Shown here piece by piece: positions 41,131 to 64,000 of a stretch of DNA of 64,000 bases. Where the stretch lies: the NCBI GenBank assembly GCA_965207455.1, contig CBDBMJ010000001.1, positions 544,001 to 608,000 on the forward strand, in the 5' to 3' direction. The translations under genes were made by a program, and so were the position numbers. How positions within the stretch are numbered: position 1 is the stretch's first letter; each line of letters opens with the position of its first letter. A model generated the notes under the pieces. It saw only the letters and a program-made list of their open reading frames with translations. It did no database searches and had not been told where the DNA came from. The DNA is from Bdellovibrionota bacterium. Its GTDB lineage: Bacteria; Bdellovibrionota; UBA1018; CAIPTA01; JAALKR01.

Positions 41131-41257
41131 GACCTATACGTTCGTTTTATTGATATTTACTGTCCTAATTACGGACACCAGTCAATGAATATAGGCCCCT
41201 AGAGGGGGCTCTGTGCCAGCTTTTTTGGTACGGAAATTGCTTTTACATGATTAAGAT
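41131..41257 (+). repeat. ~126-bp direct repeat, copy 1 (upstream of the methyltransferase)
   Basis: GACCTATAC...GTCCTAATTACGGACACCAGTCAATGAATATAGGCC...CTGTGCCAGCTTTT.TGGTACGGAAATTGCTTTTACATGATTAAGAT, shared with 43486-43610. Confidence 0.92.
41226..41241 (+). promoter_or_regulatory. Sigma54 (-24/-12) promoter, copy 1
   Basis: TGGTACGGAAATTGCT matches the TGGYACR-N4-TTGCW consensus with exact GG-N10-GC spacing. Confidence 0.7.
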
Positions 41258-41300
41258 TTTCAGTTATTCTCTAGTAAGAGTTTTTGGCGGTTTATATAAT

Positions 41301-42476: not shown

Positions 42477-42494
42477 AGACGTAAAAAAAATACT

Positions 42495-43480: not shown

Positions 43481-43485
43481 TACTG

Positions 43486-43610
43486 GACCTATACATGCGC
43501 TTATTGACATTTACCGTCCTAATTACGGACACCAGTCAATGAATATAGGCCATAGAAGGGGTTCTGTGCCAGCTTTTCTGGTACGGAAATTGCTTTTACA
43601 TGATTAAGAT
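43486..43610 (+). repeat. ~126-bp direct repeat, copy 2 (begins 5 bp after the endonuclease stop)
   Basis: Near-identical to 41131-41257. Confidence 0.92.
43579..43594 (+). promoter_or_regulatory. Sigma54 (-24/-12) promoter, copy 2
   Basis: TGGTACGGAAATTGCT, about 70 bp upstream of the small ORF at 43664. Confidence 0.7.
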
Positions 43611-43663
43611 GTTTACAGATGGTCCATTGATTTCATCTGTGTTAAGATAAATAAGGAGGAGAT

Positions 43664-43810
43664 ATGATGCAAGGCAAGAAAAAAGGAACAAAGAAAAAAA
43701 CTAAAAAAGTTAGAGCCAAAAAAAAGAAAAAAGATCACTGGGCTGATTTCAAGCCCTTAAGTCCCTTTTCTTTCTTTATTGCAGAAAGAGAACATTCCAG
43801 GTTAAAATAA
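43664..43810 (+). CDS. Unannotated 48-aa Lys-rich small protein, copy 1
   Basis: RBS AAGGAGGA; MMQGKKKGTKKKTKKVRAKKKKKDHWADFKPLSPFSFFIAEREHSRLK; paralog at 44942. Confidence 0.7.
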   Translation: MMQGKKKGTKKKTKKVRAKKKKKDHWADFKPLSPFSFFIAEREHSRLK

Positions 43811-43853
43811 CAGGTAATTAGTTAAAAAAAGTATTTATTTTTAACTGTGTTCT

Positions 43854-44873
43854 ATGAGTAATCCATTCCTTAATAAATATAAAACATGCATGTATGCAGA
43901 CAAACCATCTAAGGTTTTGCGAGCAGGAGATGTTATTACCCTTACTTTAGAGGATGTGAGTAGAATTGCTAGGCATCCCTCTATTCTTGAGGTATTTAAA
44001 CAGTATTCAGAAGATCTGCAATATCCACGGAATCTATGGGCAATATTAAATAAACCCTGCGATATGATTCATGATGGAGAAAATAAAAGATACTTCACAG
44101 CCAACTTATTTTTATCTCCACTCCAAGGGTTGAAAAATGTGTTGAAGCAGAAAACTGTCAAGGAAATTTTATTCCAACAAAAGAGAGCGATGGAATCTGT
44201 AAGAGAGACTTTTCATCAATACATTCAAAAAAATAAAAATACAATCCCCAGTTTCAAGGATACAGTGACATCCCTTTTATACTCTGTTGAGAGTGAAATA
44301 GAGTCATTGGAGACTCCAGAAGAAATATTAGATTATCTCATTAGTTATATAAATAAGAACAAGAAAAATAAACAGCAAGTTATTGACTTAGAATCTTTTA
44401 GAAATTCTTCTATTTGGAAGAAAAATCTTAAAAGACACAATCCTGTAAAAATAGATAAAAGTATAATCATACTTAAAGGGGATAAACCAAAGCCATTGGT
44501 TAATCTATTTCGCAATCAACTTGACTCCCAAGGAATTTTCTTCTATGAACCTCATAAAGATTTATCTAGCGTGGACCATGATTTGGCTTATGTGATACAA
44601 ATAGAGGATATGATAACTCTAAAAATAAAAAAAGAGTTTCAAAGGAATGGTGAGCTTCCGGAAATATTGATAAAAAATAGGAAGATATCCTTGTCAGAAA
44701 GTTTCTCAGATAGGCTTCTTAATATTATGGGTAATTATTTTTCAAGAATTGCAACAGATGATGTGAGTATTAGTGAGGTTACTGATTTATATAAGAAAAT
44801 CTATCCAGAAACTTTTTTTACCAGTGAAAAACAGTTTAACGAGGAGAAAGGGCAATTAAAAAGCCTAATTTAA
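43854..44873 (+). CDS. Hypothetical protein, possibly PemK/MazF-like
   Basis: LRAGDV...WAILNKPCDM and C-terminal ISL...F..RL...MGNYFSRIA; family assignment is by eye. Confidence 0.55.
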   Translation: MSNPFLNKYKTCMYADKPSKVLRAGDVITLTLEDVSRIARHPSILEVFKQYSEDLQYPRNLWAILNKPCDMIHDGENKRYFTANLFLSPLQGLKNVLKQKTVKEILFQQKRAMESVRETFHQYIQKNKNTIPSFKDTVTSLLYSVESEIESLETPEEILDYLISYINKNKKNKQQVIDLESFRNSSIWKKNLKRHNPVKIDKSIIILKGDKPKPLVNLFRNQLDSQGIFFYEPHKDLSSVDHDLAYVIQIEDMITLKIKKEFQRNGELPEILIKNRKISLSESFSDRLLNIMGNYFSRIATDDVSISEVTDLYKKIYPETFFTSEKQFNEEKGQLKSLI

Positions 44874-44941
44874 TTTTTTTTGCCTATCATTTCAATGTAT
44901 GATACGAATTTTATTAAGATAGAAGGAGAAGGGAAGAGACC

Positions 44942-45103
44942 ATGAAGCGAAGCGTCGGAAGGAAAGTGGGAACAAAGAAAAAAACGGCTAAAAAACCTAG
45001 AGCCAAAAAAAAGAAAGAAGATTATTGGGCTGATTTCAAGCCCTTGAGTCCCTTTTCTTTCTTTATTGCAGAAAGAGAATATTCCAAGTCAAAATATAGA
45101 TAA
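44942..45103 (+). CDS. Unannotated 53-aa Lys-rich small protein, copy 2
   Basis: Purine-rich RBS region; MKRSVGRKVGTKKKTAKKPRAKKKKEDYWADFKPLSPFSFFIAEREYSKSKYR. Confidence 0.65.
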   Translation: MKRSVGRKVGTKKKTAKKPRAKKKKEDYWADFKPLSPFSFFIAEREYSKSKYR

Positions 45104-45190
45104 TTAGTTGAAAAATAATTTGCATCAACTGAGGGTGTCATAAACGCAACTCTTAACTACACAATTTACTTTACAGGCCCACTATGTTCC

Positions 45191-45226
45191 ATGAATAATC
45201 CGTTCCTTAATAAATATAAATCCTGA
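45191..45226 (+). pseudogene. Truncated duplicate of the first 10 codons of the 339-aa gene
   Basis: MNNPFLNKYKS* versus MSNPFLNKYKT at 43854; upstream bases also match. Confidence 0.75.
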
Positions 45227-45262
45227 CCTGTTCGAATATTGAGATTGCAATTACAGAATAGC

Positions 45263-45523
45263 TTACAGACGTATAGGAGTCCTTTCTTTAAGCTGAATTT
45301 TTTCCCTTATATCTGTATAAATATCTATATCTTCTTCTGTTTCTAAAGTAACAGCTAGGCTATATGGTATTGAAGAATTTATTTCAGGAGCATTTTCAGT
45401 ACAATTAATCTGAATGTTTATTTTTTCATCGTCAATAAATTCTGAAATTTTTGTTTTTGAAGATAATACTGAATGTTGAATTGTTCCGGCTCTTTTTTCT
45501 TGGTGTCCATCTACCTCTATCCC
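45263..45523 (-). pseudogene. Out-of-frame C-terminal fragment of the S8 peptidase
   Basis: Reads GIEVDGHQEKRAGTIQH...IPYSLAVTLE...IYTDIREKI...PIRL*, resembling the C-terminus of IetS-like proteases; no start of its own. Confidence 0.75.
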
Positions 45524-47748
45524 AGAATATTTGGGATTCCAAAACCCAGATATCTGGGGAGGTCTTTTTTTGAAGCCTTAGGAAAGCTTTCCTTTGCTTC
45601 ACCCCACTTGGCACTGTGAACTAAAAGCGTTTTTAGGACTACTGCATAGTTTCCATTAGGAATATTAAATTTATTTTTTTCTAACATTTCAAAAATTAAC
45701 CCTGCACTTCTAGATGCTAATGCATTGGCATTGCTGGTTCCTCTAGTGTAAGAATATTTGTTAGATGGTATGGCTACTTTTTGTCCCGGAGGTTTATTGG
45801 ATTTATTTATTTCATATTCTTTTTGGCTTGGACTACTATCTCTAACATTGTTATATAATTGTCGTCCTCCAGGGAGTAAAACATCTGGTTTTATAGAGTT
45901 TTTAAAACCATATCCTATTGATGATATGGGGGAGAGGGTGCCTTTACCGGAAGGCAAAATATCAATTCTATTGCCTATGTTAAATTCAGATACGTTATCT
46001 GTATGAGTGGCGCCAACCGTGATAGAGTTTATAGAGTCAGCAGGCATTATGATTTTTCGAAGTCGATGGTCACCCATTATTTTTTTAATTATTGATTTTG
46101 TTAAATCCTCATTTGTAGAATTATTATTTTCAATTTGTATATTATCTAAAAAATTACCAGCACTTACAAGAAAGAGAACTTTATATTTCCATGATAAGTA
46201 ATCTAAAAGCCTGCCTCCAGAGGTCATATTTTTATAAAACCATCTAGATTTATGCCCAACTGATAGATTAATAATTTTCACATTTGAGGCCATTGGAGGT
46301 ATGTCACCTGTTTCTTCAAACATTCTGCGAACAGACCGCTCAATTATATCTTCAAAAAATAAATCTGATGGAATTTCTTCTACATTCATGATTGGATGAT
46401 TTTTTAAAATTGGTCTGACATATATTTTTCGCTCTAAAGGTTTTTCTTCTATTTCTAAATCACCATTACAGATTAAAGAAGCCATGCTTGTTCCATGGAG
46501 TCTGGAGGTTGAGGGGTATGAGCTCTGAAAATCATCAGGGTCATCTATAGTTAGTTTTTCAGATAAAGCTTCATGATTTTGTAATGGAAGCCCGTCTAGC
46601 ATGGCTATAATAGGAGGTTTATTGTTTTTCTCTACACGATTAAAATCTCTGGCACTTGAAAAACCTCCTTGACTGTTAATATTTAAAGAATTTTGTCCAG
46701 ATGGTCTGAAAAATTTTATATTGTCATTTTTAAATAATTTATTAAATTGCCCATTCAAAGCAAGTTGAACCTCATTTGGAGGTAAGTTAACCTTGGCTAA
46801 ATGTATTTTGACATCATGTTTTTGATAAAATTTAACTTCTCCAACGTTGCCGCCTCGTTCTTGAACTATTTCTCTGATGTTTCTTTCAGCTATCTTTCTT
46901 TTCTCTTCATTTTCTTTGTACCAAAACTCCAATTCAAAGGAAATATTTTCGGTTTGAATTTTTGCATCATTTCTGAGATTTTGCAATATATTGCTTTCCT
47001 CTAATCTGTCATTTTCATTCCAATAGCGGATATTATGGAGGCAGTCGAAAACATCTCGCCATGGTGTTGTTCCTCTTTCAAAAACCCCGTTATTTTTATA
47101 TTTCCTCCATAATCTTAATAACTGTTCAATGCCATCTTGATTGCTCATACAAAGAAAAAGTTTGCCACGCAATGAAGTAGGGCACCCTTCTTTTTTAATT
47201 GCTTGCTTCAGAATTTTAATAATCTCTATTTCAGCGTGCTTTAATTTTTCAGGAATAAATTGGCTAAAATCACCCGGCGACTTCTTTTCATTCCAGAAAT
47301 ACTTTTTATTTTCTTGGTTCTCTAAAATGAAGTCATTGTTTTTCAAGCAGGCATAAATTTCCTTTAATTCGTCTGTTTTTTTAGTAATGTTTTCAGTTTT
47401 GAATAAATTAACTTTGATTGTATCTGTCTTGAAACCTATATTTTCTTCTATTTCAAAATCTTCAATCACTTGGTCTAAGCATTCAAGGCCAATTTTTTTG
47501 GCTGCAGCACTCAGATCTGTAATCTTTTCACCGAGGACCTCTAAAACAAGAACTTTTTCGATTGCTGAAATTTCAGATGGAGTGTTGGCAATAAATGCTT
47601 CATTCATAGAATTCATTTTTTTATTCAGGCGTTCCCATTGTTCACCTCTGTTTGGTTTGATGAAACCTTGAGAAATAGGGCGTAGGATTTTTTGTACTGA
47701 ACTTATATTTGGTTTGTTAAATAAAAGGAGAGGTCTATTTTCTGGCAT
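45517..47748 (-). CDS. S8 (subtilisin-like) peptidase, IetS-like, C-terminally truncated
   Basis: Catalytic D (MLDG), H (HGTSMAS), oxyanion N (SAGN), S (GTSNA); overlaps the upstream AAA ATPase. Confidence 0.85.
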   Translation of the reverse strand: MPENRPLLLFNKPNISSVQKILRPISQGFIKPNRGEQWERLNKKMNSMNEAFIANTPSEISAIEKVLVLEVLGEKITDLSAAAKKIGLECLDQVIEDFEIEENIGFKTDTIKVNLFKTENITKKTDELKEIYACLKNNDFILENQENKKYFWNEKKSPGDFSQFIPEKLKHAEIEIIKILKQAIKKEGCPTSLRGKLFLCMSNQDGIEQLLRLWRKYKNNGVFERGTTPWRDVFDCLHNIRYWNENDRLEESNILQNLRNDAKIQTENISFELEFWYKENEEKRKIAERNIREIVQERGGNVGEVKFYQKHDVKIHLAKVNLPPNEVQLALNGQFNKLFKNDNIKFFRPSGQNSLNINSQGGFSSARDFNRVEKNNKPPIIAMLDGLPLQNHEALSEKLTIDDPDDFQSSYPSTSRLHGTSMASLICNGDLEIEEKPLERKIYVRPILKNHPIMNVEEIPSDLFFEDIIERSVRRMFEETGDIPPMASNVKIINLSVGHKSRWFYKNMTSGGRLLDYLSWKYKVLFLVSAGNFLDNIQIENNNSTNEDLTKSIIKKIMGDHRLRKIIMPADSINSITVGATHTDNVSEFNIGNRIDILPSGKGTLSPISSIGYGFKNSIKPDVLLPGGRQLYNNVRDSSPSQKEYEINKSNKPPGQKVAIPSNKYSYTRGTSNANALASRSAGLIFEMLEKNKFNIPNGNYAVVLKTLLVHSAKWGEAKESFPKASKKDLPRYLGFGIPNILG

Positions 47749-48700
47749 TTTTTTTACTGGAAGATTTTAATTGACTAAGTCTATCTGTGATAGTGCGTTT
47801 GGTTATTTTCCCTGATCTTAATAAGACAGATTGTCTATAAATATCTAAACAGAAATCTTCTATTTCAGAAAAGCTTAATTTATAAAGTTTTTCTGACAAA
47901 TGCTCAATATTATAATCAAAACCTAGATTTGTTTTTTCAATAAATTGACTTAAGAAAGGAATTATTTGTTTTTTCAAGGGCATTGAAAGTTCTAATTTTA
48001 ATTGAAAACGCCTCCATACTGCTTTATCTAAAAGTTCAGGATGGTTGGTTGCTGTGATAACAACAACATAACTAGGTAGTTTATCTATTTGAAGTAATAA
48101 TGAACTCACTACTCGCTTAATTTCTCCTGTTTCTTTTGAGTCGCCTCGTTCTTTAGCTAAGGTATCAAACTCATCAAAAAATAAAACACAGCTTCTTGTT
48201 TTGATATAGTCAAATAAACTTTGCAGTTTTGTTGCTGTTTCACCTAAATAACTTCCAATTAAATTTTCATACCTTACAGTAAACATAGGGATCATCAGTT
48301 CTGTGGCGATAGCTTCAGCTAAACTTGTTTTTCCATTTCCAGGAGGTCCGTCTAAAAGAATTCTATGCCTGGGTTCTAGCGAATAGGATTGAAGCAGTTC
48401 TGCTCTATGTTGCTCCTCAATTAATGCTTCGCATACAGTGAGATTGGTTTTGCTTAGAAAGAGGCTATCTAAATTTCTATTTGGAGTAGTTTCAAAAAAT
48501 AAATCGTCGCATTTATTTGCAGTGTTATAGAATGTTTTTTTAGCTCCGTTCTTTAAAATTTTGCGCAATTGGTCGGCCAAAACATGATGGTTTTTTGCTT
48601 GTTCCTCATTAATTAAAGCTTCAACGCTTTTCTTAAGTAGGGATATATCTCCAGAATAGCCAGATTTAACGATGCGCATGATTATGTCGGATTTTGCCAT
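47735..48700 (-). CDS. AAA+ ATPase, IetA-like
   Basis: GPPGNGKT, SYLGETA, FFDEFD, ATNHPELLD.AVWRRF; paired with the S8 peptidase. Confidence 0.88.
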   Translation of the reverse strand: MAKSDIIMRIVKSGYSGDISLLKKSVEALINEEQAKNHHVLADQLRKILKNGAKKTFYNTANKCDDLFFETTPNRNLDSLFLSKTNLTVCEALIEEQHRAELLQSYSLEPRHRILLDGPPGNGKTSLAEAIATELMIPMFTVRYENLIGSYLGETATKLQSLFDYIKTRSCVLFFDEFDTLAKERGDSKETGEIKRVVSSLLLQIDKLPSYVVVITATNHPELLDKAVWRRFQLKLELSMPLKKQIIPFLSQFIEKTNLGFDYNIEHLSEKLYKLSFSEIEDFCLDIYRQSVLLRSGKITKRTITDRLSQLKSSSKKNARK

Positions 48701-52406: not shown

Positions 52407-55088
52407 ATGGGTTTGGGGATCACATTTAAGCAACAAAGCAAAGAGACTCAGTCGGGTTCTGCCATTTTAATGGTGATGGTCTTAGGTTTATTTATATCTA
52501 GCCTTTCCTACCTTTCCCTTCGAAAGTATCAGATTCATTTAGGGTCGCAAAAAACAGCGGAAGCTCGACAAACACTGCACATGATCCATACAGATATTCG
52601 AGGTGTATTGGGAGACACGCAATCTTGCACAGAGACAATAAAAAAAATTGCCATTTCAGAGGTAAGTAGCAAACTTCTTCCATTTATTAAAGGTTCTGGT
52701 GGGCAGATACTCTACCGGGTTAATAGGCCAGATAGCACTGGAACAACAATCACTGAACTGCAACTCTCCAAGCTTACTCCTATCCCGGGTACTACTAGCT
52801 CCATGGCAGAACTCTCTATCTTTTTTGAAAGGAAAAATAGCACTGGTCTTGAACTTCCTTCCTTTCGAGCCAGAGATATTAAAATTAAAATAGATCATCC
52901 ACCTCTTAATGTGACTCAACTTGCTCTCGGGAAATACCACACATGTGCGTTGTTTACTAATGGAAGGATGAAGTGCTGGGGCGGTGGTAGCGGAGGGAAT
53001 AATAAAGGACAATTAGGTTATGAAAATAAGGATACTATAGGTGATATTGTAGATGAGTTAGGGGGCAATCTTCCCTTTGTAGATTTAGGGTCCGGTATTA
53101 ATGGTCCTTATAAAGCAACAGCTATTTCTGCTGGTAATCAGCATACCTGTGCACTTTTAAATGTGGAAGGAACGGGAAGAGTAAAATGCTGGGGAAATAA
53201 TGCTGCTGGACAGTTGGGTTATGGCAATATATTTTCAAAGGGAGATCAAGAACATGATATGACAAATCTTCCTTTTATAGATTTGGGTGGTATTATTGAC
53301 GGTCATCATTTTTCAGTGCTGGCTATTGCTAGTGGGGATAGTCACAACTGTGCAATTATAGTGGATCCTCCTAGAGCGCCACCGGGACGAGCTTGGGAAG
53401 AAAGAAAAGTTAAGTGCTGGGGAGAGAATGAGCATGGGCAGCTTGGGCGAGGGAATACAGAGGATAGAGGCGATGAGGGTGGGGAGATGAGAAACGCTTT
53501 GGACTTCATACAATTAGGGCAAGGAGGAGGGCAACAGTTAGAGGTTGTTGCTATTAGTGCAGGAATAAGCCACAGCTGTGCTATTTTGAATACTACGCAA
53601 GGTAAGCAAATTAAGTGTTGGGGAAGTAATAGTGCTGGTCAATTAGGGGCAGGATCTACTGCTAGTAAAAGAGGAGCACTTGCAAATGAGATGGGTAGTT
53701 TTTTAAATTTTATTAATTTAGGAACGATTAGTGGTGGTACTGATCCTTTACATGTTTTGTCGATGAGTACAGGGGGAGAAACTAGCTGTGCTGTTTTAGA
53801 TATAAGTACCGGAAGTAGGTTAAAGTGCTGGGGATATAATTCAAAAGGACAGTTAGGTATTGGTAACAGTAATTCAAAGGGACAATCTCCCAACCATATG
53901 GGAAACTATATTTCCTCTAGTGTAGGGCTTCCCTTTGTGGATTTGGGTACAAATTTAGTGGCTAAATCCGTTTCTGTTGGTAATAAGCATACTTGTGTTA
54001 CTTTAACAAGTGGTAAAGTAAAATGTTGGGGAGAGGGTGGTGATGGTCGGCTTGGTTTGGGTAGTGGAGGTGTTTCTGATCCTATTGGCAATAGAGCTAA
54101 CGAAATGGGATATTATTTAAAATATTCTAAATTGGGAACTGATGCTAGTACTGGTGAACGCCATAGGGCTAGTGATGTTTTTGCTGGTTTTGTTCACACT
54201 TGTGCTGTAATGAGTGAAAAAGTAAAGTGTTGGGGTGAGGGAGGTGACAGAGCGCTTGGGTATGGCAATAACCAAAGTATTGCTCGTTTTAACGCTGGTG
54301 AAATGGGGAACAATCTTGGATTTGCTTTGATAGGGTCAGAAAAAATATGCACAGCAATTTTTGCCGAAGATGGAGAAAATTGGGAGTATAAGGATGGGTC
54401 CATTTTTTTGGGTGATGATAGCACAAAGCTGGGTATTGGTACGGATGAACCCGAGGAGATGCTTCATGTGAAGGGTACTATGAAAATAGAGGGAGATGCT
54501 TCTGCTGAAAATGTGTTCAGTTCTGGTTCGATACAATTAGATGAATTTACAGGATCGGATTGTACTGATACAGAAAAGGGGACTCAGCGATTTCGTGGAT
54601 ATGAAATGGAATATTGTGACGGAACTGATTGGAGGAATTTGGGTCAATCGCTTTGGGAGGAACATCCTAACCAAATAGCCACACCAGCTACTGGTACGCC
54701 TAGAAATGTGGGAATAGGAACGGATAATCCTCAAGCTAGATTACATGTTGCAGGAGAAAGTAAATTAGAAAACGGTGAATTTACAGTAGATGGCAATTCC
54801 GCTAGTCCTAGTAGCATTCCTAAGGCATTAGCTATTGGTGGTAATGTTGGAGTTGGGGGAGATGCTACAGGTGCGGAAAATACGGGTACAGATTATAGAT
54901 TAAAAATTGAGGATGGAAACTTTGTATCTACGGGTTTTACGAAAATGGATCATATGAAGTTGAAGGCTACAACTGCTCCTGAGTGCTCCCCTGCAAAGGG
55001 TTTAAACACTCTCTACTATAATATAGCTATTAATAGTCTCCAGTACTGTGATGGGAATATCTGGAGAAGTTTTAGGGTAGCTCCCTAG
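52407..55088 (+). CDS. Pilin-like (PilX-type leader) protein with internal RCC1 propeller and C-terminal fibre-like repeats (gene A)
   Basis: Leader QSG|SAILMVMVLG; seven RCC1 blades (HTC...KCWG..GQLG...EMG..L..IDLG); GIGTxxPxxxLHVxG x2; C...YCDG..W x2. Confidence 0.8.
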   Translation: MGLGITFKQQSKETQSGSAILMVMVLGLFISSLSYLSLRKYQIHLGSQKTAEARQTLHMIHTDIRGVLGDTQSCTETIKKIAISEVSSKLLPFIKGSGGQILYRVNRPDSTGTTITELQLSKLTPIPGTTSSMAELSIFFERKNSTGLELPSFRARDIKIKIDHPPLNVTQLALGKYHTCALFTNGRMKCWGGGSGGNNKGQLGYENKDTIGDIVDELGGNLPFVDLGSGINGPYKATAISAGNQHTCALLNVEGTGRVKCWGNNAAGQLGYGNIFSKGDQEHDMTNLPFIDLGGIIDGHHFSVLAIASGDSHNCAIIVDPPRAPPGRAWEERKVKCWGENEHGQLGRGNTEDRGDEGGEMRNALDFIQLGQGGGQQLEVVAISAGISHSCAILNTTQGKQIKCWGSNSAGQLGAGSTASKRGALANEMGSFLNFINLGTISGGTDPLHVLSMSTGGETSCAVLDISTGSRLKCWGYNSKGQLGIGNSNSKGQSPNHMGNYISSSVGLPFVDLGTNLVAKSVSVGNKHTCVTLTSGKVKCWGEGGDGRLGLGSGGVSDPIGNRANEMGYYLKYSKLGTDASTGERHRASDVFAGFVHTCAVMSEKVKCWGEGGDRALGYGNNQSIARFNAGEMGNNLGFALIGSEKICTAIFAEDGENWEYKDGSIFLGDDSTKLGIGTDEPEEMLHVKGTMKIEGDASAENVFSSGSIQLDEFTGSDCTDTEKGTQRFRGYEMEYCDGTDWRNLGQSLWEEHPNQIATPATGTPRNVGIGTDNPQARLHVAGESKLENGEFTVDGNSASPSSIPKALAIGGNVGVGGDATGAENTGTDYRLKIEDGNFVSTGFTKMDHMKLKATTAPECSPAKGLNTLYYNIAINSLQYCDGNIWRSFRVAP

Positions 55089-55253: not shown

Positions 55254-58200
55254 ATGCTAACAAAGCCAATAAGTGGAAAGCGTCCTTTTAGTAATCAGTC
55301 TGGTGTAACCCTAGTGGGTGTGGTAGTAGCGGCTGGTTTGCTGGGAGTGCTTACCCTATTTTCCATGCAAGTCCAAATTAATTTAATCGGTAGTCAGGAA
55401 ACAACGGATAATCGGTATGCGTTTAATAATATTCAATCTAATATTCGTCAATTGTTAGGGAGTCCAAAAGCTTGTAGAGAAACGTTAGAAGGACAGATCA
55501 TTCCTAATCTACCGAATAATTATCTTTCTGTTTCTGACATAAGAGACGATACGGGATCAGCAACGTACAGTCAAGGTAGTTCTTATGAGGGTGGTAGGGT
55601 ATTGATTTCAAAAATGGATCTTTCTTCCTTTGTTCCCAGTGAAAGCGGTTCCCATGAAGGTACAGCAGAATTGCTGGTCTTTTTTCAATCCGCAACAAAT
55701 GTTCCTGGAACTATTGATGCAAAACCAAGAAGAATTGCTTTAAGTATTAAAACCAATCTTACTACTCGTTCTATTACTAAGTGTAGTGCCCTATTTTCAG
55801 AAAAAAATGACAACTCTTGGAGAGAGAATGTCCAGAAGGATCTGTATTTTGATGCTAGTTATGTGGGTATTGGTGTGGAGAATCCAGAAAATGAACTGGA
55901 TATATTGGGAGACGCTAAGTTTAAAGGTAGTTTGAATGTAATAGGCTTATATGATCTGAAAACAATAAAGGTTGGATTTTCGGGTGACTGTAATGCAGGG
56001 TCTCAGCGATATAATACGGGCACCGATACTATGGAGTTTTGCAATAGTGGTAGCTGGGAAGCGATGGGGAGCCTTTGGTCTCAAACGGATACTGGAAACT
56101 TTTATACTGATCCCGCAAAAAATGTTGGTATTGGAACAGAAACACCAGAAAAGAAATTTCATGTGGATGGTAATGCTAAGTTTGATGGTTATATGAGGAT
56201 GGATTCCAGTTCTGGATCAAGCCAGGCATTGGCAGTGCAGGGAAGAGTTATCATTGGACAAAATTTAGATAGCAGCTCTTCTATTGTAATTCCTCCAACG
56301 CTAGCTTCTGATGATACACAGTTCGGTGTGGATGGTGATGTGGAAATTGAAGGCACACTAGAAACGAGTACTATGCAAATAAGCCATGGCAGTCAAGCCT
56401 GTAATGGGGAGAGCATTGGAGTAACGAAGCGTTCTGGTTCAGGTCAGTTTAAATACTGTGATGGAAATAATTGGCAAGTTCTTTTGCCTGAGGATGTAAA
56501 CTTTGTGAAGGAAGAAGATGATGAAATTTTAGAGGTAGATAAAATAATGGTGGGTAAAAATCATACTTGCACTTACTTTACGAATAAAAAAGTAAAATGT
56601 TTTGGAAAAAATAATAAGGGTCAACTGGGTGATAATACGAATAATGATAGTGGTACTCCTGTTTATGTTGAAGATGATGGAGGTAACCATTTAGAAGATG
56701 TTGCTGCAATTTCAACCCATGGAGAGAGCGATTCCACCTGTGCTCGTATGGTTGATGGAACGGTGAGATGTTGGGGAGCAAATAATGAAGGCCAGTTAGG
56801 TAACGGGAGTTCTTCTGATTCGAATCATGCAGTAGCAGTTAATGATATTTCTACAGCTACTTTAATTTCTGTGGCTGCTAAACATGCTTGTGTGCGGTTG
56901 AGTGACGGTACTGCAAAATGTTGGGGAGCAAATGATGAAGGCCAGTTGGGTGATGGTACTAAATTCCAGAGAAATACGCCTGTTTTAGTTAAAGACTCTT
57001 CGGGTACAGATAATCGTGAAGATATTACAAGTATAGAAACAGGTAATGATAGGACTTGTATTAACTATGAGGTTGGTGGGGAGACTAGATCTGGATGTTG
57101 GGGCAAAGATGGAGATCAAACAGCACCTGGTAATACAGATGATTCACTTTTTTCAGGGCCAGTAGATATTGCTATAGCAGGAGATCATATTTGTATGCGA
57201 CCACAAAGTGGAACCGTTCAATGCTGGGGGCTGAATCAATTTGGGCAACTTGGTGATGGTCATACTAGTAGTGATGAGACATACAGATCAGAGCCAAAGC
57301 TTGTGATTGGTATAACGAGTGCAGTGAAAATTGCTGTACGCAATGGATCTAGCTGCGCTATCTTAAGAGATAAGTCTTTGTGGTGTTGGGGACAGATAAC
57401 AAATGATATATCATCAAACAAAGCAGTTAAGGTTGTGGGTTTTGAGAATGTTGTGGATGTTCGTCTTGGTTATTATCATAACTGTGTAACATTTGAAGAC
57501 GGAACAGGCAAGTGCTGGTCAAATGACCCCAGCAGTGTTACGAATCAAGAAGGTCTTGTTAGTAATCCAGATAATTCTATTTCTACCGAGAGTGAGACGC
57601 TTGAAATATTTGATCATGCTGAAACGGTTGGACAATTCAGGTTTAGACCTTGTGGAGGTGTAATTAGACATAAAAGTGAATCTACTGGTGTAGTAGGAGA
57701 TAGGCGATCTTGTGCAGTAGGTTCTGCTTTTCATAACGATATTGTAGACGGTGTTTGTGTTCAATCCTTAAATTGTTCTTTTGATGGTTCAGGGTATGGC
57801 CGTGAGAGAGTTTGTGAATCTGCACAAGGAACCTGTAAGTATACATGTAGTAATAGTACTTGGACAAGAAAGACAAACAATTGTGAAAAGCTAGTAACGC
57901 GAGTTCATTCACCAGACGGACCGCCACCAGTGTGGCCTATACAAATTGCCTCGGGATATTATCATACCTGCGTAGTTCTTAATGATGGCACAGCCAAATG
58001 CTGGGGGAGGAATAATAAAGGGCAATTGGGTAATGGTACTAAAGACAGTAGTTCAACACCAGTTAAAGTTTCTGATCTAACGAATGCGGTTCAAATTTCC
58101 GTGGGAGATAATCACAGTTGCGCAGTTCTTAGTGATGGCACAGCCAAGTGCTGGGGAAATAACGAAGATGGACAATTGGGTGATGGTCATACAACCAATA

Positions 58201-60080
58201 GATATACACCAGTTGCAGTTTCTGGTCTAACGAATGCGGTTCAAATTGCCTTGGGGGAAGAACACACCTGCGCAGTTCTTCGTGACGGCACAGCCAAATG
58301 CTGGGGAGCTAATAGTAGCGGGCAATTGGGTGATAATAGTTTAACCAGGAGAAATACAGCAGTTGCAGTTGATGGTATAACGAATGCGGTTCAAATTGCC
58401 TTGGGATATACTCACAGTTGCGCAGTTCTTAATGATGGCACAGCAAAGTGTTGGGGAAAGAATAATTTTGGGCAGTTGGGTGACGGTTTTACAACTAATA
58501 GACGTAAACCAGTTGAAGTTTTTGAGTTAACGAATGCCGCTCAGATTGCCTTAGGAGATTTTCACACCTGTGCGATTCTTACTGATGGTACAGCAAAATG
58601 CTGGGGGCGGAATAACTATGGGCAATTGGGTGATAGTACAGGAACCCAGAGAAATACCCCAGTTGCAGTTCTCGAGTTAACGAATGCGGTTCAAATTGCC
58701 TTGGGATCTTATCACACCTGCGCAGTTCTTCGTGACGGCACAGCCAAATGCTGGGGGTATAATAATAGAGGGCAATTGGGTAATGGTAGTACAACCCATA
58801 GATCTACACCAGGTACAGTTCCTGTGTTAACGAATGTGCTTCAAATTGCCTTGGGATCAGCGCACAGTTGCGCAGTTCTTCGTGACGGCACAGCCAAATG
58901 TTGGGGGTGGAATGCATATGGGCAATTGGGTAATGGTAGTACAACCCAGAGAACTACACCAGTCTTCGTTGATGGTTTTTCCACTCCCTACCTTTTTCCC
59001 ACGGAAATTGCTGGGGGAGAAACCCACAGTTGCGCACTTATGAATGATGGCACAGCCAAATGCTGGGGGTGGAATAACTATGGGCAATTGGGTAATGGTA
59101 CTAAAGACAGTAGTTCAACACCAGTTAAAGTTTCTGATCTAACGAATGCGATTCAAATTTCCTTGGGAGATAATCACAGTTGCGCAGTTCTTAGTGACGG
59201 CACAGCCAAATGCTGGGGGTATAATAATAAAGGGCAATTGGGTGATAATACTACAGCAGATAAATTAACACCAGTTAAAGTTTTAGGGTTAGCGAATGCG
59301 GTTCAAATTGCCTTGGGAGGGTATCACACCTGCGCACTTCTTCGTGACGGCAAAGCAAAGTGCTGGGGGAATAATAATAGAGGGCAATTGGGTGATGGTA
59401 CTACAACCCATAGATCTAAACCAGTTGCAGTTCTCGTGTTAACGAATGCGGTTCAAATTGCCTTGGGAGAAAACCACAGTTGCGCAGTTCTTCTTGACGG
59501 CACAGCAAAATGCTGGGGGTGGAATAAATATGGGCAATTGGGTAATGGTACAGGAACCCAGAGAAATACCCCAGTTGCAGTTCTCGAGTTAACGAATGCG
59601 ATTCAAATTTCCTTGGGAGGTTACCACAGTTGCGCACTTCTTCGTGACGGCACAGCCAAATGTTGGGGGCGGAATGGTAATGGGCAATTGGGTGCTAGCA
59701 CTACACAGACATGTGGCACTGCAAATATTCCTTGTAGCAGCACACCAGTTGCAGTTGATGGGTTAACGAATGCGGTTCAAATTGCCTTGGGATTTCACCA
59801 CAGTTGCGCAGTTCTTCGTGACGGCACAGCCAAATGTTGGGGGTGGAATGCATATGGGCAATTGGGTAATGGTAGTACAACCGATAGATATACACCAGTT
59901 GCAGTTTCTGGGTTAACGAATGCCGTTCAAATTTCCTTGGGAGATAATCACAGTTGCGCAGTTCTTAGTGATGGCACAGCCAAATGCTGGGGGAGGAATG
60001 CATCTGGGCGATTGGGTGATGGTCATACAACCGACAGATCTACACCAGTCTTCGTTGATGGTACATTATTAAATCCATAA
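55254..60080 (+). CDS. Giant pilin-like adhesin: class III leader, fibre-like repeats, three RCC1 propellers (gene B)
   Basis: Leader NQSG|VTLVGVVVAAG; VGIG..P repeats; C...FCN/YCDG..W; about 6-7 diverged blades, a Cys-rich linker, then 14 near-identical blades. Confidence 0.85.
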   Translation: MLTKPISGKRPFSNQSGVTLVGVVVAAGLLGVLTLFSMQVQINLIGSQETTDNRYAFNNIQSNIRQLLGSPKACRETLEGQIIPNLPNNYLSVSDIRDDTGSATYSQGSSYEGGRVLISKMDLSSFVPSESGSHEGTAELLVFFQSATNVPGTIDAKPRRIALSIKTNLTTRSITKCSALFSEKNDNSWRENVQKDLYFDASYVGIGVENPENELDILGDAKFKGSLNVIGLYDLKTIKVGFSGDCNAGSQRYNTGTDTMEFCNSGSWEAMGSLWSQTDTGNFYTDPAKNVGIGTETPEKKFHVDGNAKFDGYMRMDSSSGSSQALAVQGRVIIGQNLDSSSSIVIPPTLASDDTQFGVDGDVEIEGTLETSTMQISHGSQACNGESIGVTKRSGSGQFKYCDGNNWQVLLPEDVNFVKEEDDEILEVDKIMVGKNHTCTYFTNKKVKCFGKNNKGQLGDNTNNDSGTPVYVEDDGGNHLEDVAAISTHGESDSTCARMVDGTVRCWGANNEGQLGNGSSSDSNHAVAVNDISTATLISVAAKHACVRLSDGTAKCWGANDEGQLGDGTKFQRNTPVLVKDSSGTDNREDITSIETGNDRTCINYEVGGETRSGCWGKDGDQTAPGNTDDSLFSGPVDIAIAGDHICMRPQSGTVQCWGLNQFGQLGDGHTSSDETYRSEPKLVIGITSAVKIAVRNGSSCAILRDKSLWCWGQITNDISSNKAVKVVGFENVVDVRLGYYHNCVTFEDGTGKCWSNDPSSVTNQEGLVSNPDNSISTESETLEIFDHAETVGQFRFRPCGGVIRHKSESTGVVGDRRSCAVGSAFHNDIVDGVCVQSLNCSFDGSGYGRERVCESAQGTCKYTCSNSTWTRKTNNCEKLVTRVHSPDGPPPVWPIQIASGYYHTCVVLNDGTAKCWGRNNKGQLGNGTKDSSSTPVKVSDLTNAVQISVGDNHSCAVLSDGTAKCWGNNEDGQLGDGHTTNRYTPVAVSGLTNAVQIALGEEHTCAVLRDGTAKCWGANSSGQLGDNSLTRRNTAVAVDGITNAVQIALGYTHSCAVLNDGTAKCWGKNNFGQLGDGFTTNRRKPVEVFELTNAAQIALGDFHTCAILTDGTAKCWGRNNYGQLGDSTGTQRNTPVAVLELTNAVQIALGSYHTCAVLRDGTAKCWGYNNRGQLGNGSTTHRSTPGTVPVLTNVLQIALGSAHSCAVLRDGTAKCWGWNAYGQLGNGSTTQRTTPVFVDGFSTPYLFPTEIAGGETHSCALMNDGTAKCWGWNNYGQLGNGTKDSSSTPVKVSDLTNAIQISLGDNHSCAVLSDGTAKCWGYNNKGQLGDNTTADKLTPVKVLGLANAVQIALGGYHTCALLRDGKAKCWGNNNRGQLGDGTTTHRSKPVAVLVLTNAVQIALGENHSCAVLLDGTAKCWGWNKYGQLGNGTGTQRNTPVAVLELTNAIQISLGGYHSCALLRDGTAKCWGRNGNGQLGASTTQTCGTANIPCSSTPVAVDGLTNAVQIALGFHHSCAVLRDGTAKCWGWNAYGQLGNGSTTDRYTPVAVSGLTNAVQISLGDNHSCAVLSDGTAKCWGRNASGRLGDGHTTDRSTPVFVDGTLLNP
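57936..60062 (+). repeat. 14 tandem ~150-bp intragenic repeats (two 7-bladed RCC1 propellers)
   Basis: Unit QIxxGxxHxCAVLxDGTAKCWGxNxxGQLGxGxxxxRxTPVxVxxLTNA, near-identical at DNA level. Confidence 0.95.
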
Positions 60081-60092: not shown

Positions 60093-62591
60093 ATGGGAAG
60101 AAAGGTTGATAGAATGATGAAAAAAATAGTTCTTTTAAAAAAAATAATGGGCACGGAATCTGGTGTTTCTTTAGTGAGTGTAATGATAGCGGCAGGGATA
60201 TTGGGTATAGTTACACTTTTTTCTATTAAAGTTCAAGAAGGAATGATAGGAGGAGCAAAGTCTGTGGAGCGAAGGCATTCCGTAATGGGAGTATTTTCTA
60301 ATATTCGTTCCTTTCTTGCTAATGCTGAGGTTTGTAAGGAAAGCTTAGCTGGATTAAAGCCCGCAGAATCCGTTCCTGAAATAAAGGATGATAAAGGGAA
60401 TGTAGTATACCAAGAAAATAATTTTTATGAAGATGGAAATATTCAGCTTCAGTCCATGAATCTTTCAGCTTTAACAGAGAGCTTTAGTGGATCCAGCAGA
60501 GGGTTTCTTGATTTGAATGTAGTATTTTCTCAGGGAGAAAATAGGACTGGAAGACAATCCTTAGGATTTCTTCCCAGGAGGATTCGCCTTTATGTGGAAA
60601 TAGACCCTAACAATGATGGTGTTATTAAAAACTGTATTACTGTTGCGGGAAAAAATAGTGGAAACTGGCAATATGGATCCAATGAAAGTTTATACTATAT
60701 GGGTAATTCTGTGGGGGTTGGAACCAATAGTCCTGGATCGAAATTAGATGTTCAAGGAAATGCTAAAATAGAGGGACAAATGGGAGCTCACCATGTAGAG
60801 AGTAAGGGTGCTATACAAGTGGGTCAAACAGCAAGTACCTTAGCTTGTTCTGGAAACAATAGGGGAACCCAGCGCTATAGCGTTATTGGTGGTGAAATTG
60901 TTATGCAGTTTTGCAGTGAAAATCGTTGGAAAGCTATGAAAGAGATTTGGGAAGAAAACGGTTCATTTATATTCTCACCCACTGATAGTATTGTGGGTAT
61001 TGGAACCAATACCCCCAGTAGTACTGAAAGATTGGAAGTGAAAGGTGATAGTTGGTTTCAAGGTTTTATGGCTATGAGTGCTCCGTCCGGTTCCTCTAAA
61101 GCACTGGTGGTACGAGGAAATGTTCGTATTGATGACTCATCCTCTGATGCAGACACTGTTTTGCAAGATCCAAGCACATCAGTAAGGTTAGGTGTAAATG
61201 GAAATGTAAAAATAGAAAAATCCATTAAATCAGTATTGTGGCTGAAAGACGGTGGTGCGAATAGTATAACTTGTGATGCTACTAAAGTAGGGTCAGTGCG
61301 AAGTAACGTTAGTGAATTACAGTATTGTAATGGAACAGCTTGGAAAACCATACAAACAAAAAAATTGCCAACAGTGGATCAAATTGGGAGTGGTCTATAT
61401 CATTCTTGTGCAAAAATTAACGATGGAATTCAAACAACAGCTAAATGCTGGGGTTCTAATACCTGGGGACAATTAGGCATTGGAAAGTTTGGACAGAATA
61501 TTCCCGTACCCACTACAGTATTAGAAAGTGGTACACCTGAGAGTAACCCGATACCTTTTAAGCAAATTAAAGAGCTTTCTTTGGGTGATAGCCATACCTG
61601 TATAATAGCTGGAACTAATAGAAAAGCTTATTGCTGGGGAAATAATCATTCCTATAAATTAGGTATTGATGGTTTTGAACAGAGGGACGCTGATAATAAG
61701 CTCACATTTAAGATTCATCCTACTGAAATTGTTAAAACTATTGCTGATGATCCATTTACTGATATAGATAAGATATCCGCAGGTTTCTATCATACTTGCG
61801 CTGTTAAGAATCAAGCGGCTTGGTGTTGGGGTGGAAATTTTTATGGTCAAATTGGAAATGGAGAGTCTGGTAATGACAAATTTGTAAAACTTCCCACTAA
61901 GATTAATACTGATGGGTATGTGGTAGATGTGGCTGCCAGCGAATCTTTTACTTGCGCATTATTGGCGAATAAAAAAGCACAATGCTGGGGGGCTAATTGG
62001 TATGGTCAACTTGGTAATGACAATGATGAGTATAAAGGAAAAGGTAGTCCTGAACATATTTATGTAGAAGGAATTACTGATATAGCGCAAATTGCTGTAG
62101 GCTTGCGCCACGCCTGTGCTCGATTAGAGAATGGATCAATGTGGTGTTGGGGTGCTGGTTGGTCTGGGCAGCTAGGTAACGGTACTTTCGATTCCAGTTC
62201 TATTCCCGTTCAAGTAGAAACAAGTCCAGGGGTAGCGCTTCTTGGAGTTACTCATATTTCTGCTTCTCAATACCAAACTTGCGCTGTTTTAACTGGAGGT
62301 AAAGCTATGTGCTGGGGATTGAATAAAAAAGGAGAAGTGGGTAATGGATTAACTGAGAAAACCCATACTCCCGCTCTAGTATCTGATATTATAAATGTGG
62401 AAAAAGTTTCTGCAGGATATAACCATACCTGTGCGGTTTCCAACGAGCCTGTCAATGGTGGTAACCCTTTAGTTAAAGGAAGTACAGTTTCTTGCTGGGG
62501 TTCCAATTATAAGGGTCAACTGGGCGTTGGTCAGGATAGCTCAAGCCACAGTCTGCTTCCTAAAGCAACGCTTCTGTTGCTCCAAGACTAG
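60093..62591 (+). CDS. Pilin-like adhesin: class III leader, fibre-like repeats, one RCC1 propeller (gene C)
   Basis: RBS AAGGAG; leader ESG|VSLVSVMIAAG; VGVGT..P and VGIGT..P; C...FC/YCNG..W; seven RCC1 blades. Confidence 0.85.
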   Translation: MGRKVDRMMKKIVLLKKIMGTESGVSLVSVMIAAGILGIVTLFSIKVQEGMIGGAKSVERRHSVMGVFSNIRSFLANAEVCKESLAGLKPAESVPEIKDDKGNVVYQENNFYEDGNIQLQSMNLSALTESFSGSSRGFLDLNVVFSQGENRTGRQSLGFLPRRIRLYVEIDPNNDGVIKNCITVAGKNSGNWQYGSNESLYYMGNSVGVGTNSPGSKLDVQGNAKIEGQMGAHHVESKGAIQVGQTASTLACSGNNRGTQRYSVIGGEIVMQFCSENRWKAMKEIWEENGSFIFSPTDSIVGIGTNTPSSTERLEVKGDSWFQGFMAMSAPSGSSKALVVRGNVRIDDSSSDADTVLQDPSTSVRLGVNGNVKIEKSIKSVLWLKDGGANSITCDATKVGSVRSNVSELQYCNGTAWKTIQTKKLPTVDQIGSGLYHSCAKINDGIQTTAKCWGSNTWGQLGIGKFGQNIPVPTTVLESGTPESNPIPFKQIKELSLGDSHTCIIAGTNRKAYCWGNNHSYKLGIDGFEQRDADNKLTFKIHPTEIVKTIADDPFTDIDKISAGFYHTCAVKNQAAWCWGGNFYGQIGNGESGNDKFVKLPTKINTDGYVVDVAASESFTCALLANKKAQCWGANWYGQLGNDNDEYKGKGSPEHIYVEGITDIAQIAVGLRHACARLENGSMWCWGAGWSGQLGNGTFDSSSIPVQVETSPGVALLGVTHISASQYQTCAVLTGGKAMCWGLNKKGEVGNGLTEKTHTPALVSDIINVEKVSAGYNHTCAVSNEPVNGGNPLVKGSTVSCWGSNYKGQLGVGQDSSSHSLLPKATLLLLQD

Positions 62592-62622: not shown

Positions 62623-64000
62623 ATGAGAAAAAAAGGCAAAACCACTTGGTTGAACTCTTCAGGTATGAGTTTAGTTGCTGTAATGATAGTTGTGACGTTT
62701 ATGAGTTCCTGTGGCAATGGAACATTTGAAGTTACAGCAGATTCCACAGGTGTGACGGGTACCACGAGAGACACAGCAAGTAAAATACTTTTGGGACGCG
62801 ATCATACTTGCGCACTTATTAGTGATGGCACTGTAAAATGTTGGGGAAATAATTTTTATGGGCAATTGGGTAACGATTCTACGGATGATAGCACCACCCC
62901 TGTTATAGTTTCTGGACTCTCTAACGTACGTCAAGTTATATTATATTGGGAACATACTTGCGCAATCATTAATGATGGTACTGTGAAGTGCTGGGGAAAG
63001 AATGAAAATAGTCAGTTGGGTGCTAGCACTACACAGACATGTGGCACTGCAAATATTCCTTGTAGCAGCACACCCGTTGAAGTTTCTGGCTTAAGTAATG
63101 TGAGTCAAATTGCTTCAGGAGCGTATCATTATTGTGCATTATTAACTACAGGCTCTGTAAAATGCTGGGGTTTAAATAGTTCTGGACAATTGGGCGACGG
63201 CAATGGTGGTAATACTGGAGATAAAAGTCCAACACCTGTTCTCGTTTCTGGGATTACCAATGCAAGTCGAATTGCCTTAGGACATTATTATAGTTGTGCA
63301 TTATTAACGACTGGCTCTGTGAAATGTTGGGGGCGAAATAGTTTTAGGCAGTTAGGCGACGGTACTTCTGAGCAAAGAACGGTGCCAGTTGCCGTTTCTG
63401 GGATTACCAATGCAAGTCAAATTAGAGCTGGGGAAGATTCCACCTGTGTTATTTTAAGTGACGCTTCTGTAAAATGCTGGGGAACTAGTTCTTATGGGAA
63501 GTTGGGTTATGGTAGTACAGATCATACCGCAATACCAGTTACAGTTTCCGGTATTGATAACGCAAGTCAAATTCTTATGTCCAATGTTCACGCTTGTGCA
63601 TTATTAACCACTGGTTCTGTGAAATGTTGGGGGAAGAATGAGTCCGGGCAATTGGGAAATGGCAGTGGTGGTAGCAGTGGAGATAAAAGTTTAGCACCAG
63701 TTGAGGTTTTTGGCATTACTAATGCAAGTCAAATTGATATTGGCTACTATCATTTTTGTGCATTATTATCGACTGGCTTTGTGAAGTGTTGGGGCTTGAA
63801 TAGTTCTGGGCAATTGGGCGACGGCAATGGTGGTAATACTGGAGACAAAAGCCTAGTACCGGTTACAGTTTCTGAACTCAGCAATGTAAGCCAACTTTCA
63901 TTAGGAGGTCATTATAGTTGTGTTGTTTTAAATGATGATACTGTGAAATGCTGGGGTCAGAATAGTGATGGGCAGTTAGGCGACGGTTCCACAGATGATC
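62623..64000 (+). CDS. RCC1-repeat surface protein, runs off the window end (gene D; absent from the ORF track)
   Basis: RBS GGAGGAG; MRKKGKTTWLNSSG|MSLVAVMIVVTFMSSCGNG...; at least 8 blades (H.CALL.TGSVKCWG.N..GQLG); no stop before 64000. Confidence 0.85.
   Translation, partial: MRKKGKTTWLNSSGMSLVAVMIVVTFMSSCGNGTFEVTADSTGVTGTTRDTASKILLGRDHTCALISDGTVKCWGNNFYGQLGNDSTDDSTTPVIVSGLSNVRQVILYWEHTCAIINDGTVKCWGKNENSQLGASTTQTCGTANIPCSSTPVEVSGLSNVSQIASGAYHYCALLTTGSVKCWGLNSSGQLGDGNGGNTGDKSPTPVLVSGITNASRIALGHYYSCALLTTGSVKCWGRNSFRQLGDGTSEQRTVPVAVSGITNASQIRAGEDSTCVILSDASVKCWGTSSYGKLGYGSTDHTAIPVTVSGIDNASQILMSNVHACALLTTGSVKCWGKNESGQLGNGSGGSSGDKSLAPVEVFGITNASQIDIGYYHFCALLSTGFVKCWGLNSSGQLGDGNGGNTGDKSLVPVTVSELSNVSQLSLGGHYSCVVLNDDTVKCWGQNSDGQLGDGSTDD

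Follow-up and report, generated by a model that had tools for sequence, protein, structure and literature searches.

A mosaic 14-blade RCC1 array with uniform framework DNA and diverse loop codons in a Bdellovibrionota genome

Gene Layout and the 14-Blade Array

The gene described here lies at positions 55254..60080 of a 64,000-nucleotide stretch of DNA from a Bdellovibrionota bacterium (GenBank assembly GCA_965207455.1, contig CBDBMJ010000001.1, positions 544,001 to 608,000 of the forward strand). This whole stretch is referred to as the window, and positions are window positions unless the prefix G000:C1 is given. The gene encodes a 1608-amino-acid protein that ends in 14 tandem RCC1 blades. 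In order, its parts are a pilin-like N-terminus, a stalk region, a diverged RCC1 propeller, a Cys-rich linker and two homogenized RCC1 propellers.

55254..60080, + strand: whole gene, an open reading frame of 1608 amino acids from the open reading frame list, with Pfam RCC1, RCC1_2 and WD40_RLD matches
55290..55361, + strand: hydrophobic N-terminal segment (amino acids 13-36) resembling a prepilin-type methylation motif, with a Pfam N_methyl match below the cut-off
56541..57623, + strand: first propeller, seven diverged RCC1 blades (about amino acids 430-790; motif anchors at amino acids 448-753; placed by Pfam stretches)
57651..57932, + strand: Cys-rich linker ahead of the array, read from the translation
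57933..58994, + strand: second propeller, array blades 1-7, starting at 57933, 58083, 58233, 58383, 58533, 58683 and 58833
58995..60077, + strand: third propeller, array blades 8-14, starting at 58995, 59145, 59295, 59445, 59595, 59769 and 59919

The array (57933-60077) has a 150-base period according to Tandem Repeats Finder. Eleven of the 14 blades are 50 amino acids long, and one each is 54, 58 and 53 amino acids long. Per-codon statistics used blade 12 without 8 of its codons and the first-length equivalent of 50 codons for blades 7 and 14. Among the 91 blade pairs, DNA identity ranges from 65 to 90% (mean 76%) and protein identity from 48 to 80% (mean 65%, median 0.66).

An earlier note on this DNA, made from the sequence alone, described the blades as nearly identical even at synonymous sites. 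This is too strong given the DNA identities and a framework silent-site difference (pS) of 0.24-0.29, but the blades do share far more codons than other blades of the same genome. At 11 invariant residues, the probability that two blades use the same codon is 0.88 within the array and 0.45 in 129 other RCC1 blades. Codon bias therefore fails to account for the silent-site uniformity of the framework. Together with a pS lower than that of 12 comparison arrays (see below), this bears out the claim that the scaffold has been homogenized.

The same note listed the residues of two variable patches, G-X-X-H and WG-X-N-X-X. Both lists agree letter for letter with the 14 blades, and the sub-blade segments reported as shared by blades 1/8, 5/11, 7/13, 2/13 and 2/9/14 are all exact. 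Both patches are variable, as was claimed, but they do not hold all of the variation. Outside codons 9-10, 26, 28 and 29, codons 17, 36-41, 45, 47 and 48 are also highly variable.

Mosaic Tracts Within the Array

Six exact matches of at least 38 bases are found between non-adjacent blades. The three longest are as follows.

58863..58946 = 59799-59882, + strand: 84-base tract in blades 7 and 13 (offset 6), covering blade bases 31-114 and including the second variable patch
58020..58088 = 59082-59150, + strand: 69-base tract in blades 1-2 and 8-9 (offset 7), where the end of blade 1 into blade 2 equals the end of blade 8 into blade 9
58636..58688 = 59548-59600, + strand: 53-base tract in blades 5-6 and 11-12 (offset 6), where the 5/6 boundary equals the 11/12 boundary

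The other three exact tracts are 46 bases in blades 9 and 14 (offset 5), 46 bases in blades 2 and 14 (offset 12) and 44 bases in blades 3 and 6 (offset 3). The recombination test proposed in the earlier note finds a mosaic beyond chance. Of the 91 blade pairs, 11 have p<0.01 when run lengths over 95 polymorphic columns are tested by permutation, compared with a mean of 0.63 and a maximum of 9 in 2000 column shuffles. Each blade carries three variable cassettes (codons 9-10, 26-29 and 36-48). Seven blade pairs have one cassette in common and no pair has two. The variable cassettes assort independently.

Mean identity is highest at a blade offset of 7 (0.80), compared with 0.75-0.78 at most other offsets. 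A trace of propeller duplication is kept only in blades 1/8, 2/9 and 7/14; blades 1 and 8 have first-blade features, and blades 7 and 14 have last-blade features. Duplication of a propeller is thus part of the history of the array. Such a duplication was rejected as the only event, since offsets of 3, 5, 6 and 12, besides 7, are found among the longest shared tracts. This spread of offsets, together with the restricted duplication trace, upholds the earlier statement that a single duplication of one propeller cannot explain the array. The earlier proposal of ongoing recombination or gene conversion is supported by the mosaic tracts and by the independent assortment of the patches; the word ongoing depends on short, unphased contigs from one sequencing run.

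Exchange With Sister Genes

Two tracts are shared between the array and separate RCC1 genes located downstream of it.

59688..59746, + strand: 59-base tract of blade 12, including an 8-codon Cys-loop insertion, identical to 63016..63074
62623..63999, + strand: sister RCC1 gene two genes downstream, continuing past the window end, partner of the 59-base tract
58443..58481, + strand: 39-base tract in codons 21-33 of blade 4, with variable codons 26-29 inside it, identical to G000:C1:613909-613947

The flanks of the 59-base tract are only 57% and 63% identical between blade 12 and the sister gene. Either copy may have been the donor, so that blade 12 may have received the Cys loop with the tract or may have been its source. 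The 39-base tract has its partner beyond the window, in a sister gene located some 10 kb downstream, where the ungapped flanks are 40% and 28% identical to those of blade 4.

A two-Cys loop inserted after the GQLG motif (59700-59723 in blade 12; 63028-63051 in the sister gene) also occurs in single blades of several sisters, and in several of these it is in the last blade of a propeller.

The nearest DNA neighbor of all 14 blades is inside the array. For the internal blades, the closest sequence outside the array is one single blade of a diverged sister gene (G000:C1:619268-621595). For blades 1 and 8, it is the first blade of the second propeller in a sister 7+7 gene. Because every nearest neighbor is internal and the internal blades have a common outside neighbor, the array has been homogenized in place. 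The sister gene at G000:C1:619268-621595 shares both its 7+7 layout and its inter-propeller junction with the array, which points to the homogenization of an older array.

Substitution Rates and Residue Composition

Rates were obtained by Nei-Gojobori counting, with bootstrap 95% intervals. At codons 9, 10, 26, 28 and 29, which were picked post hoc, the residue-changing difference (pN) is 0.58. The pS at the other 39 codons is 0.244, giving a ratio of 2.4 (1.8-3.4), or 3.8 after Jukes-Cantor correction. The per-codon comparison that the earlier note called for therefore returns an excess of residue-changing over silent differences. Codons 17, 45, 47 and 48 (pN 0.53) are nearly as variable as these five.

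The same five codons were compared in 12 other RCC1 arrays, made up of seven sister genes and five loci of relatives. Loci L002, L004, L005 and L010 gave no row, and L001 is the locus described here. In the 12 arrays, these codons reach the same saturation as here (pN 0.46-0.71), but silent sites are saturated as well (pS 0.40-0.76), and the ratio is 0.79-1.22. In the same comparison, the present array has a pS of 0.26 and a residue-changing difference of 0.05 in the framework. Among the arrays compared, only this one pairs old-looking loops with a young-looking framework.

Across the 14 blades, the five codons encode 70 residues, which are rich in Asn (14), Tyr (13), Arg (6), Asp, Glu, Ser, Lys and Trp, and 29% of them are aromatic. 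None of the 70 is Leu, Ile, Val, Met, Pro, Cys or Gln.

Predicted Fold and Location of the Variable Codons

The AlphaFold2 model of residues 881-1608, built from a 21-sequence alignment, has a mean predicted local distance difference test score (pLDDT) of 92.6. It contains two propellers, each with seven four-stranded blades. In Foldseek comparisons, each half matches the plant photoreceptor UVR8 with a target template modeling score (TM-score) of 0.87-0.93 and a root-mean-square deviation of 1.7-1.9 Å. Among solved structures, UVR8 is the best match (E 1.8e-38), and it also ranks first by sequence (E 5e-52; 30-31% identity).

In the model, strands are formed by blade positions 2-7, 11-16, 21-25 and 40-45. 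According to the strand topology, loops 8-10 and 26-39 are on one face and loops 17-20 and 46-51 are on the other. UVR8 residue numbers were taken as chain index + 12, which reproduces the residue numbers given in structure titles, and residues were counted by hand in the alignment. The blade positions correspond to UVR8 residues as follows.

Blade positions 9 and 10: UVR8 W233 and the following Arg, in the GWRHT motif that recurs as W285/R286 and W337/R338
Blade position 26: UVR8 W94 and W250
Blade position 28: UVR8 D96
Blade position 39: UVR8 D107

The UVR8 dimer interface includes a Trp triad with W94, Arg 286 and 338, and D96/D107, and mutation of D96/D107 makes UVR8 a constitutive monomer (PMC4501546, PMC8017708). 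By model and homology, the two patches and codon 39 are thus predicted to map to the face that UVR8 uses for protein contacts. The earlier note proposed that variation is directed to one binding face. This agrees with the predicted position of its two patches, but codons 17, 45, 47 and 48 are on the opposite face.

Blade positions 13 and 23 are Cys in 14 of 14 blades (57933-60077). They are located on adjacent strands, and most of them are invariant in the 21-sequence bacterial RCC1 alignment. A disulfide between the two is possible and would suit an extracellular protein. The window also encodes a DsbA-like thioredoxin, at 5073-6140.

Population Sequences

Three public sequencing runs, X1, X2 and X3, were compared with the gene. 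No RNA dataset is among the public runs listed for the gene. Run X1, which consists of short assembled contigs, contains 83% of the words sampled from the gene. Its depth is 22-24 in the flanks (55254-57400 and beyond 60300). Within the array, contigs identical to the window have a depth of 11-14, and alternative sequence has a depth of 10-12. The X1 contigs depart from the window sequence at 57422 and rejoin it at 60300. Bins 58297-58654 of the array have almost no X1 cover.

The alternative sequence changes residues at blade codons 9 (twice), 29 (twice), 20, 31 and 34, and at tail codon 52 after blade 14. One change, at codon 28, is silent. One contig has a different first blade, with two codons fewer before the blade and other residues in both patches. 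In another contig, a blade-13-like stretch is joined to a blade-5-like end. None of eight alternative strings of at least 25 bases is found in the assembled genome, so they are not misplaced blades of this assembly. In the linker, 9 bases between 57798 and 57868 (7 codons, 6 residue changes) differ from the sole X1 contig placed there. Population variation therefore begins upstream of the repeats.

Run X1 thus contains a second array version, which fits the presence of that version in closely related cells. The earlier note had suggested a search for blade-order variants in population reads. What a single unphased run shows is a version with different loop residues and a different junction. 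In run X2, three contigs match at a depth of 2-4, and one of these derives from a sister gene by way of the shared 39-base tract. No contig of run X3 was placed on the region.

N-Terminal Region and Gene Cluster

The array gene is one of nine RCC1 genes that occur in a row at G000:C1:596404-621595. The first four are inside the window, from 52407 on. In addition to the array gene and the sister at 62623, these are:

52407..55088, + strand: sister gene whose N-terminus is of the same kind and whose RCC1 blades are diverged
60093..62591, + strand: sister gene, likewise with an N-terminus of this kind and with diverged RCC1 blades

A pilin-like N-terminus of the same kind is present in at least four of the nine genes. 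In the array protein, N_methyl (PF07963) matches this N-terminus with an E value of 0.035 and 14.1 bits against a cut-off of 21.2, and the +5 residue after the Gly is Gly rather than the conserved Glu. The neighbors of the N-terminus in a protein atlas are N_methyl and PilV-like clusters (scores 0.82-0.85), which offer a lead only. The N-terminal 442 residues have no match in NCBIfam, in PHROG or among solved structures (E up to 1). The roughly 400 residues that follow the N-terminus have no family or solved relative in NCBIfam, Pfam or solved structures.

The stalk region contains the motif VGIGT..P...L.V.G, which occurs in 2-3 copies in sister genes (55850-56400 in the array gene and 54400-55000 in the upstream sister). 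This motif has no match in Pfam, NCBIfam, PHROG or solved structures.

Across the whole protein, Pfam finds only RCC1 families and the weak N_methyl match. The scores are 579.6 bits for RCC1 (PF00415; cut-off 21.7), 583.9 for RCC1_2 (PF13540) and 703.8 for WD40_RLD (PF25390). Ran guanine-nucleotide exchange is the function of RCC1 proper and is not to be expected of a bacterial surface protein.

The 2.38-Mb genome contains 24 open reading frames with at least two RCC1 motifs, 137 motif hits and about 147 RCC1 blades. This is a large RCC1 share for a genome of its small size. The neighbors of the cluster are ordinary metabolic and repair genes according to Pfam. The RpoD encoded in the window shares 80% identity with the RpoD of a soil genome recorded as a Deltaproteobacteria bacterium.

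Interpretation and Alternatives

The favored reading, held at a probability of roughly 0.6, is that gene conversion homogenizes and reshuffles the blades while selection favors diverse loop residues in a surface binding protein. Under this reading, the pilin-like N-terminal anchor, the stalk and the three RCC1 propellers would together make a cell-surface binding protein, and the two C-terminal seven-bladed propellers would evolve in concert. Short conversion tracts between blades, occasionally from sister RCC1 genes, would keep the framework DNA uniform and would re-deal the three loop cassettes of each blade. Selection for diversity, rather than mere tolerance of it, would keep the loop codons distinct in each blade. 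The loops of seven blades would jointly make one propeller face, so that reshuffling would assemble new binding surfaces from several blades, with abundant Tyr, Asn, Arg, Asp, Ser and Trp. The putative ligand might be a prey, host or particle surface. Conversion shuffles variants and cannot create them; point mutation and selection are therefore also needed.

The contrast between loops and framework might instead be a by-product of recombination. If conversion needs identical stretches, it would homogenize only the constrained framework, and diverged loops would escape it and saturate neutrally. The longest uniform stretch (codons 11-25, 45 bases) is indeed between the two patches, and breakpoints are located there. 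However, codons 26-29 are carried in the 84-base tract of blades 7 and 13 and in the 39-base sister-gene tract. Loops are therefore converted and would become homogenized absent counter-selection. This explanation is unlikely. Recent amplification with relaxed constraint is also quite unlikely. It holds that the blades were recently copied and that their framework is under purifying selection, and the loops drift without selection for diversity. As this explanation expects, the variable positions coincide with the "x" positions in the general consensus of bacterial RCC1 repeats and are saturated in all 12 other arrays. Neutral sites should not outrun silent divergence, however, and the loop pN exceeds the framework pS by a factor of 2.4. 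Aliphatic residues, Pro and Cys are absent at the five codons, aromatic residues are frequent there, and the mosaic and sister-gene tracts show more than plain duplication and drift.

An assembly artefact is improbable. In that case two coexisting versions would have been merged into a chimeric or mis-ordered consensus, and the mosaic would be partly non-biological. An artefact of this kind would be in keeping with the two versions at approximately equal depth in X1. No contig spans the array, the window version of 57707-57922 is absent among the X1 contigs placed, and bins 58297-58654 are nearly uncovered. Against it, contigs with 0-1 differences bridge blade boundaries 6/7, 7/8, 9/10/11 and 11/12, and unique pieces do not have the raised depth expected of a collapsed repeat. 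The reading frame is open across 1608 codons, the model is confident throughout, and the sister-shared tracts are in separate genes. A dedicated mutator, either a diversity-generating retroelement or another form of targeted hypermutation, is very improbable as the writer of the loop codons, even though the loop/framework contrast is sharp and the residue composition resembles that of binding libraries. No PF00078 reverse transcriptase match is found in the genome (2.38 Mb, 94.7% complete); the control search was positive in 3 of 14 known genomes. No template copy was found; matches of at least 80% identity outside the array are only 37-81 bases long. Loop changes occur at all four bases and are proportional over them (T 53 at 9 positions, A 45 at 8, G 16 at 3 and C 8 at 1). 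The array thus lacks the features of a retroelement target. The earlier description of the codons as antibody-like suits their residue composition but does not extend to a mutator, given the lack of a reverse transcriptase match and of adenine bias.

Several points weigh against conversion combined with selection for diverse loops. The five codons of the rate test were chosen from the same data as the test. They are generic unconserved positions of bacterial RCC1 repeats, both in the 21-sequence consensus and in the 12 arrays, and relaxed constraint therefore explains part of the pattern. The face assignment depends on strand topology and homology, and by the same topology variable codons 17, 45, 47 and 48 are on the other side, so that one face is not exclusive. 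Ligand binding by the variable face is putative, and the pilin-like signal that would imply surface display falls short of the Pfam cut-off. The population evidence comes from one run of unphaseable contigs, and contig building may hide single-base variants in the flanks. No orthologue above 55% identity was found in 5.8 billion proteins, 40 relatives and JGI (Joint Genome Institute) metagenomes; because of this, no between-strain codon model could be fitted. The best non-self identity among the 5.8 billion proteins is 55%, the best identity in the 40 relatives of the genome collection is 42-45%, the only genome of the same family (88% complete) has no match to the protein, and one locus with 21% identity occurs in the JGI metagenomes.

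A broader and more tentative proposal is that the run of nine RCC1 genes and the approximately 147 blades form a recombinational binding repertoire. Loop cassettes from sister genes would be moved into both homogenized propellers, and related cells in one habitat would display different binding faces. This is possible but doubtful. If true, bacteria would have, without any retroelement, a counterpart of pilE/pilS variation or of the fungal HNWD proteins that serves to recognize prey, host or particle surfaces.

Related Systems

Bacterial binding proteins are known to be diversified by retroelements, by inversions (shufflons) and by silent-cassette conversion. To our knowledge, propellers that homogenize their framework while re-dealing their binding loops are well described only in fungal WD40 receptors.

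The HNWD WD40 repeats of Podospora anserina (het-d, het-e and relatives), which are "high internal conservation" repeats of fungal NOD-like receptors (NLRs), undergo concerted evolution within and between loci, have four surface codons under positive selection and are reshuffled into new specificities (Paoletti, Saupe and Clave 2007, PMC1805685). In both systems, propeller repeats are exchanged within the array and between genes, and a uniform framework is combined with a few diverse codons per repeat. Positive selection in HNWD may have a parallel here in the ratio of 2.4 (1.8-3.4) at post hoc codons that map by homology to the UVR8 interface. Strain polymorphism in HNWD may have one in the second array version of a single run, which differs from the window in loop residues and at a junction. 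The systems also differ. The fungal proteins are cytoplasmic NLRs with a NACHT domain and a WD40 fold, whereas the present protein is bacterial, has an RCC1 fold and begins with a pilin-like N-terminus. The fungal repeats are closer to identical, and repeat-induced point mutation (RIP), which has been proposed for the fungi, is without a counterpart here. Because it does not contain an NLR (NACHT/NB-ARC) domain, the protein is not a member of HNWD, although the process is alike. By analogy, the array is best described as an instance of the fungal WD40 process on an RCC1 scaffold in a putative bacterial surface protein, and not as a new diversity machine.

Highly symmetric RCC1/BLIP-II propellers, with a median blade identity above 60%, make up 10% of 10,480 domains and are mostly bacterial (Pereira and Lupas 2022, PMC9218822). 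That paper explains symmetric propellers by amplification from single blades, and the words "hypervariable", "gene conversion" and "recombination" are absent from its text. With a median blade identity of 0.66, the present array is within this class; it differs in the apparent homogenization of an older 7+7 array. UVR8 (4nc4, 4dnw, 8gqe and others) is likewise a seven-bladed RCC1 protein, and its dimer and partner interface is at the repeat positions that vary here. Unlike the array protein, UVR8 is a single propeller and a plant ultraviolet-B photoreceptor of the cytoplasm and nucleus, with diverged blades and conserved interface Trp, Arg and Asp residues.

Honeybee-gut Bifidobacterium genomes contain 7-24 RCC1 genes each, mostly in tandem clusters, with 2-4 propellers per protein (Ellegaard et al. 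2015, PMC4449606). The proteins are surface anchored, and their high diversity among strains is ascribed to diversifying selection (PMC4449606). They differ from the present case in their LPxTG anchor and Gram-positive host, and their diversity is described, in the part of that paper available, by gene and domain number and not by codon patches or conversion tracts. Phage RCC1 families are also related. The PHROG matches are to families 4219, 7220 and 16766, the first of which (phrog_4219) has an E value of 1.2e-118. Unlike these, the array gene is chromosomal, occurs amid housekeeping genes and has a pilin-like N-terminus.

The mean blade identity of this array is 0.64-0.65. For the 120 best database matches, the median of this measure is 0.46 and the 90th percentile is 0.61. 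The nine most homogeneous of these 120 (blade identity 0.64-0.76) come from diverse lineages and are most variable at the same blade positions (Spearman 0.51-0.68). It may therefore be that nature commonly uses RCC1 propellers as a scaffold for evolvable binding surfaces and that this has been overlooked. If so, they would help to explain how uncultured bacteria recognize surfaces and could serve as a scaffold in design. Full-text literature searches, judged by title and the start of the abstract, returned no paper on codon-level variable patches or conversion tracts in bacterial RCC1 arrays.

Other Features of the Window

At 19977-21758, 35 kb before the cluster and amid housekeeping genes, a further RCC1 protein is encoded that has a bacterial Ig-like (Big_13) domain. 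A platform gene (T2SSF) and two genes for type II/IV secretion ATPases are present at 2-3543, 50 kb away from the RCC1 cluster. These ATPase and platform genes could serve pilin-like proteins such as the RCC1 family. The stretch at 40000-48000 has a low guanine-cytosine content (0.32-0.36, compared with about 0.40-0.45 elsewhere) and encodes a C-5 DNA methylase, a subtilase with an unassigned N-terminal fusion and an AAA ATPase. It may be an acquired island.

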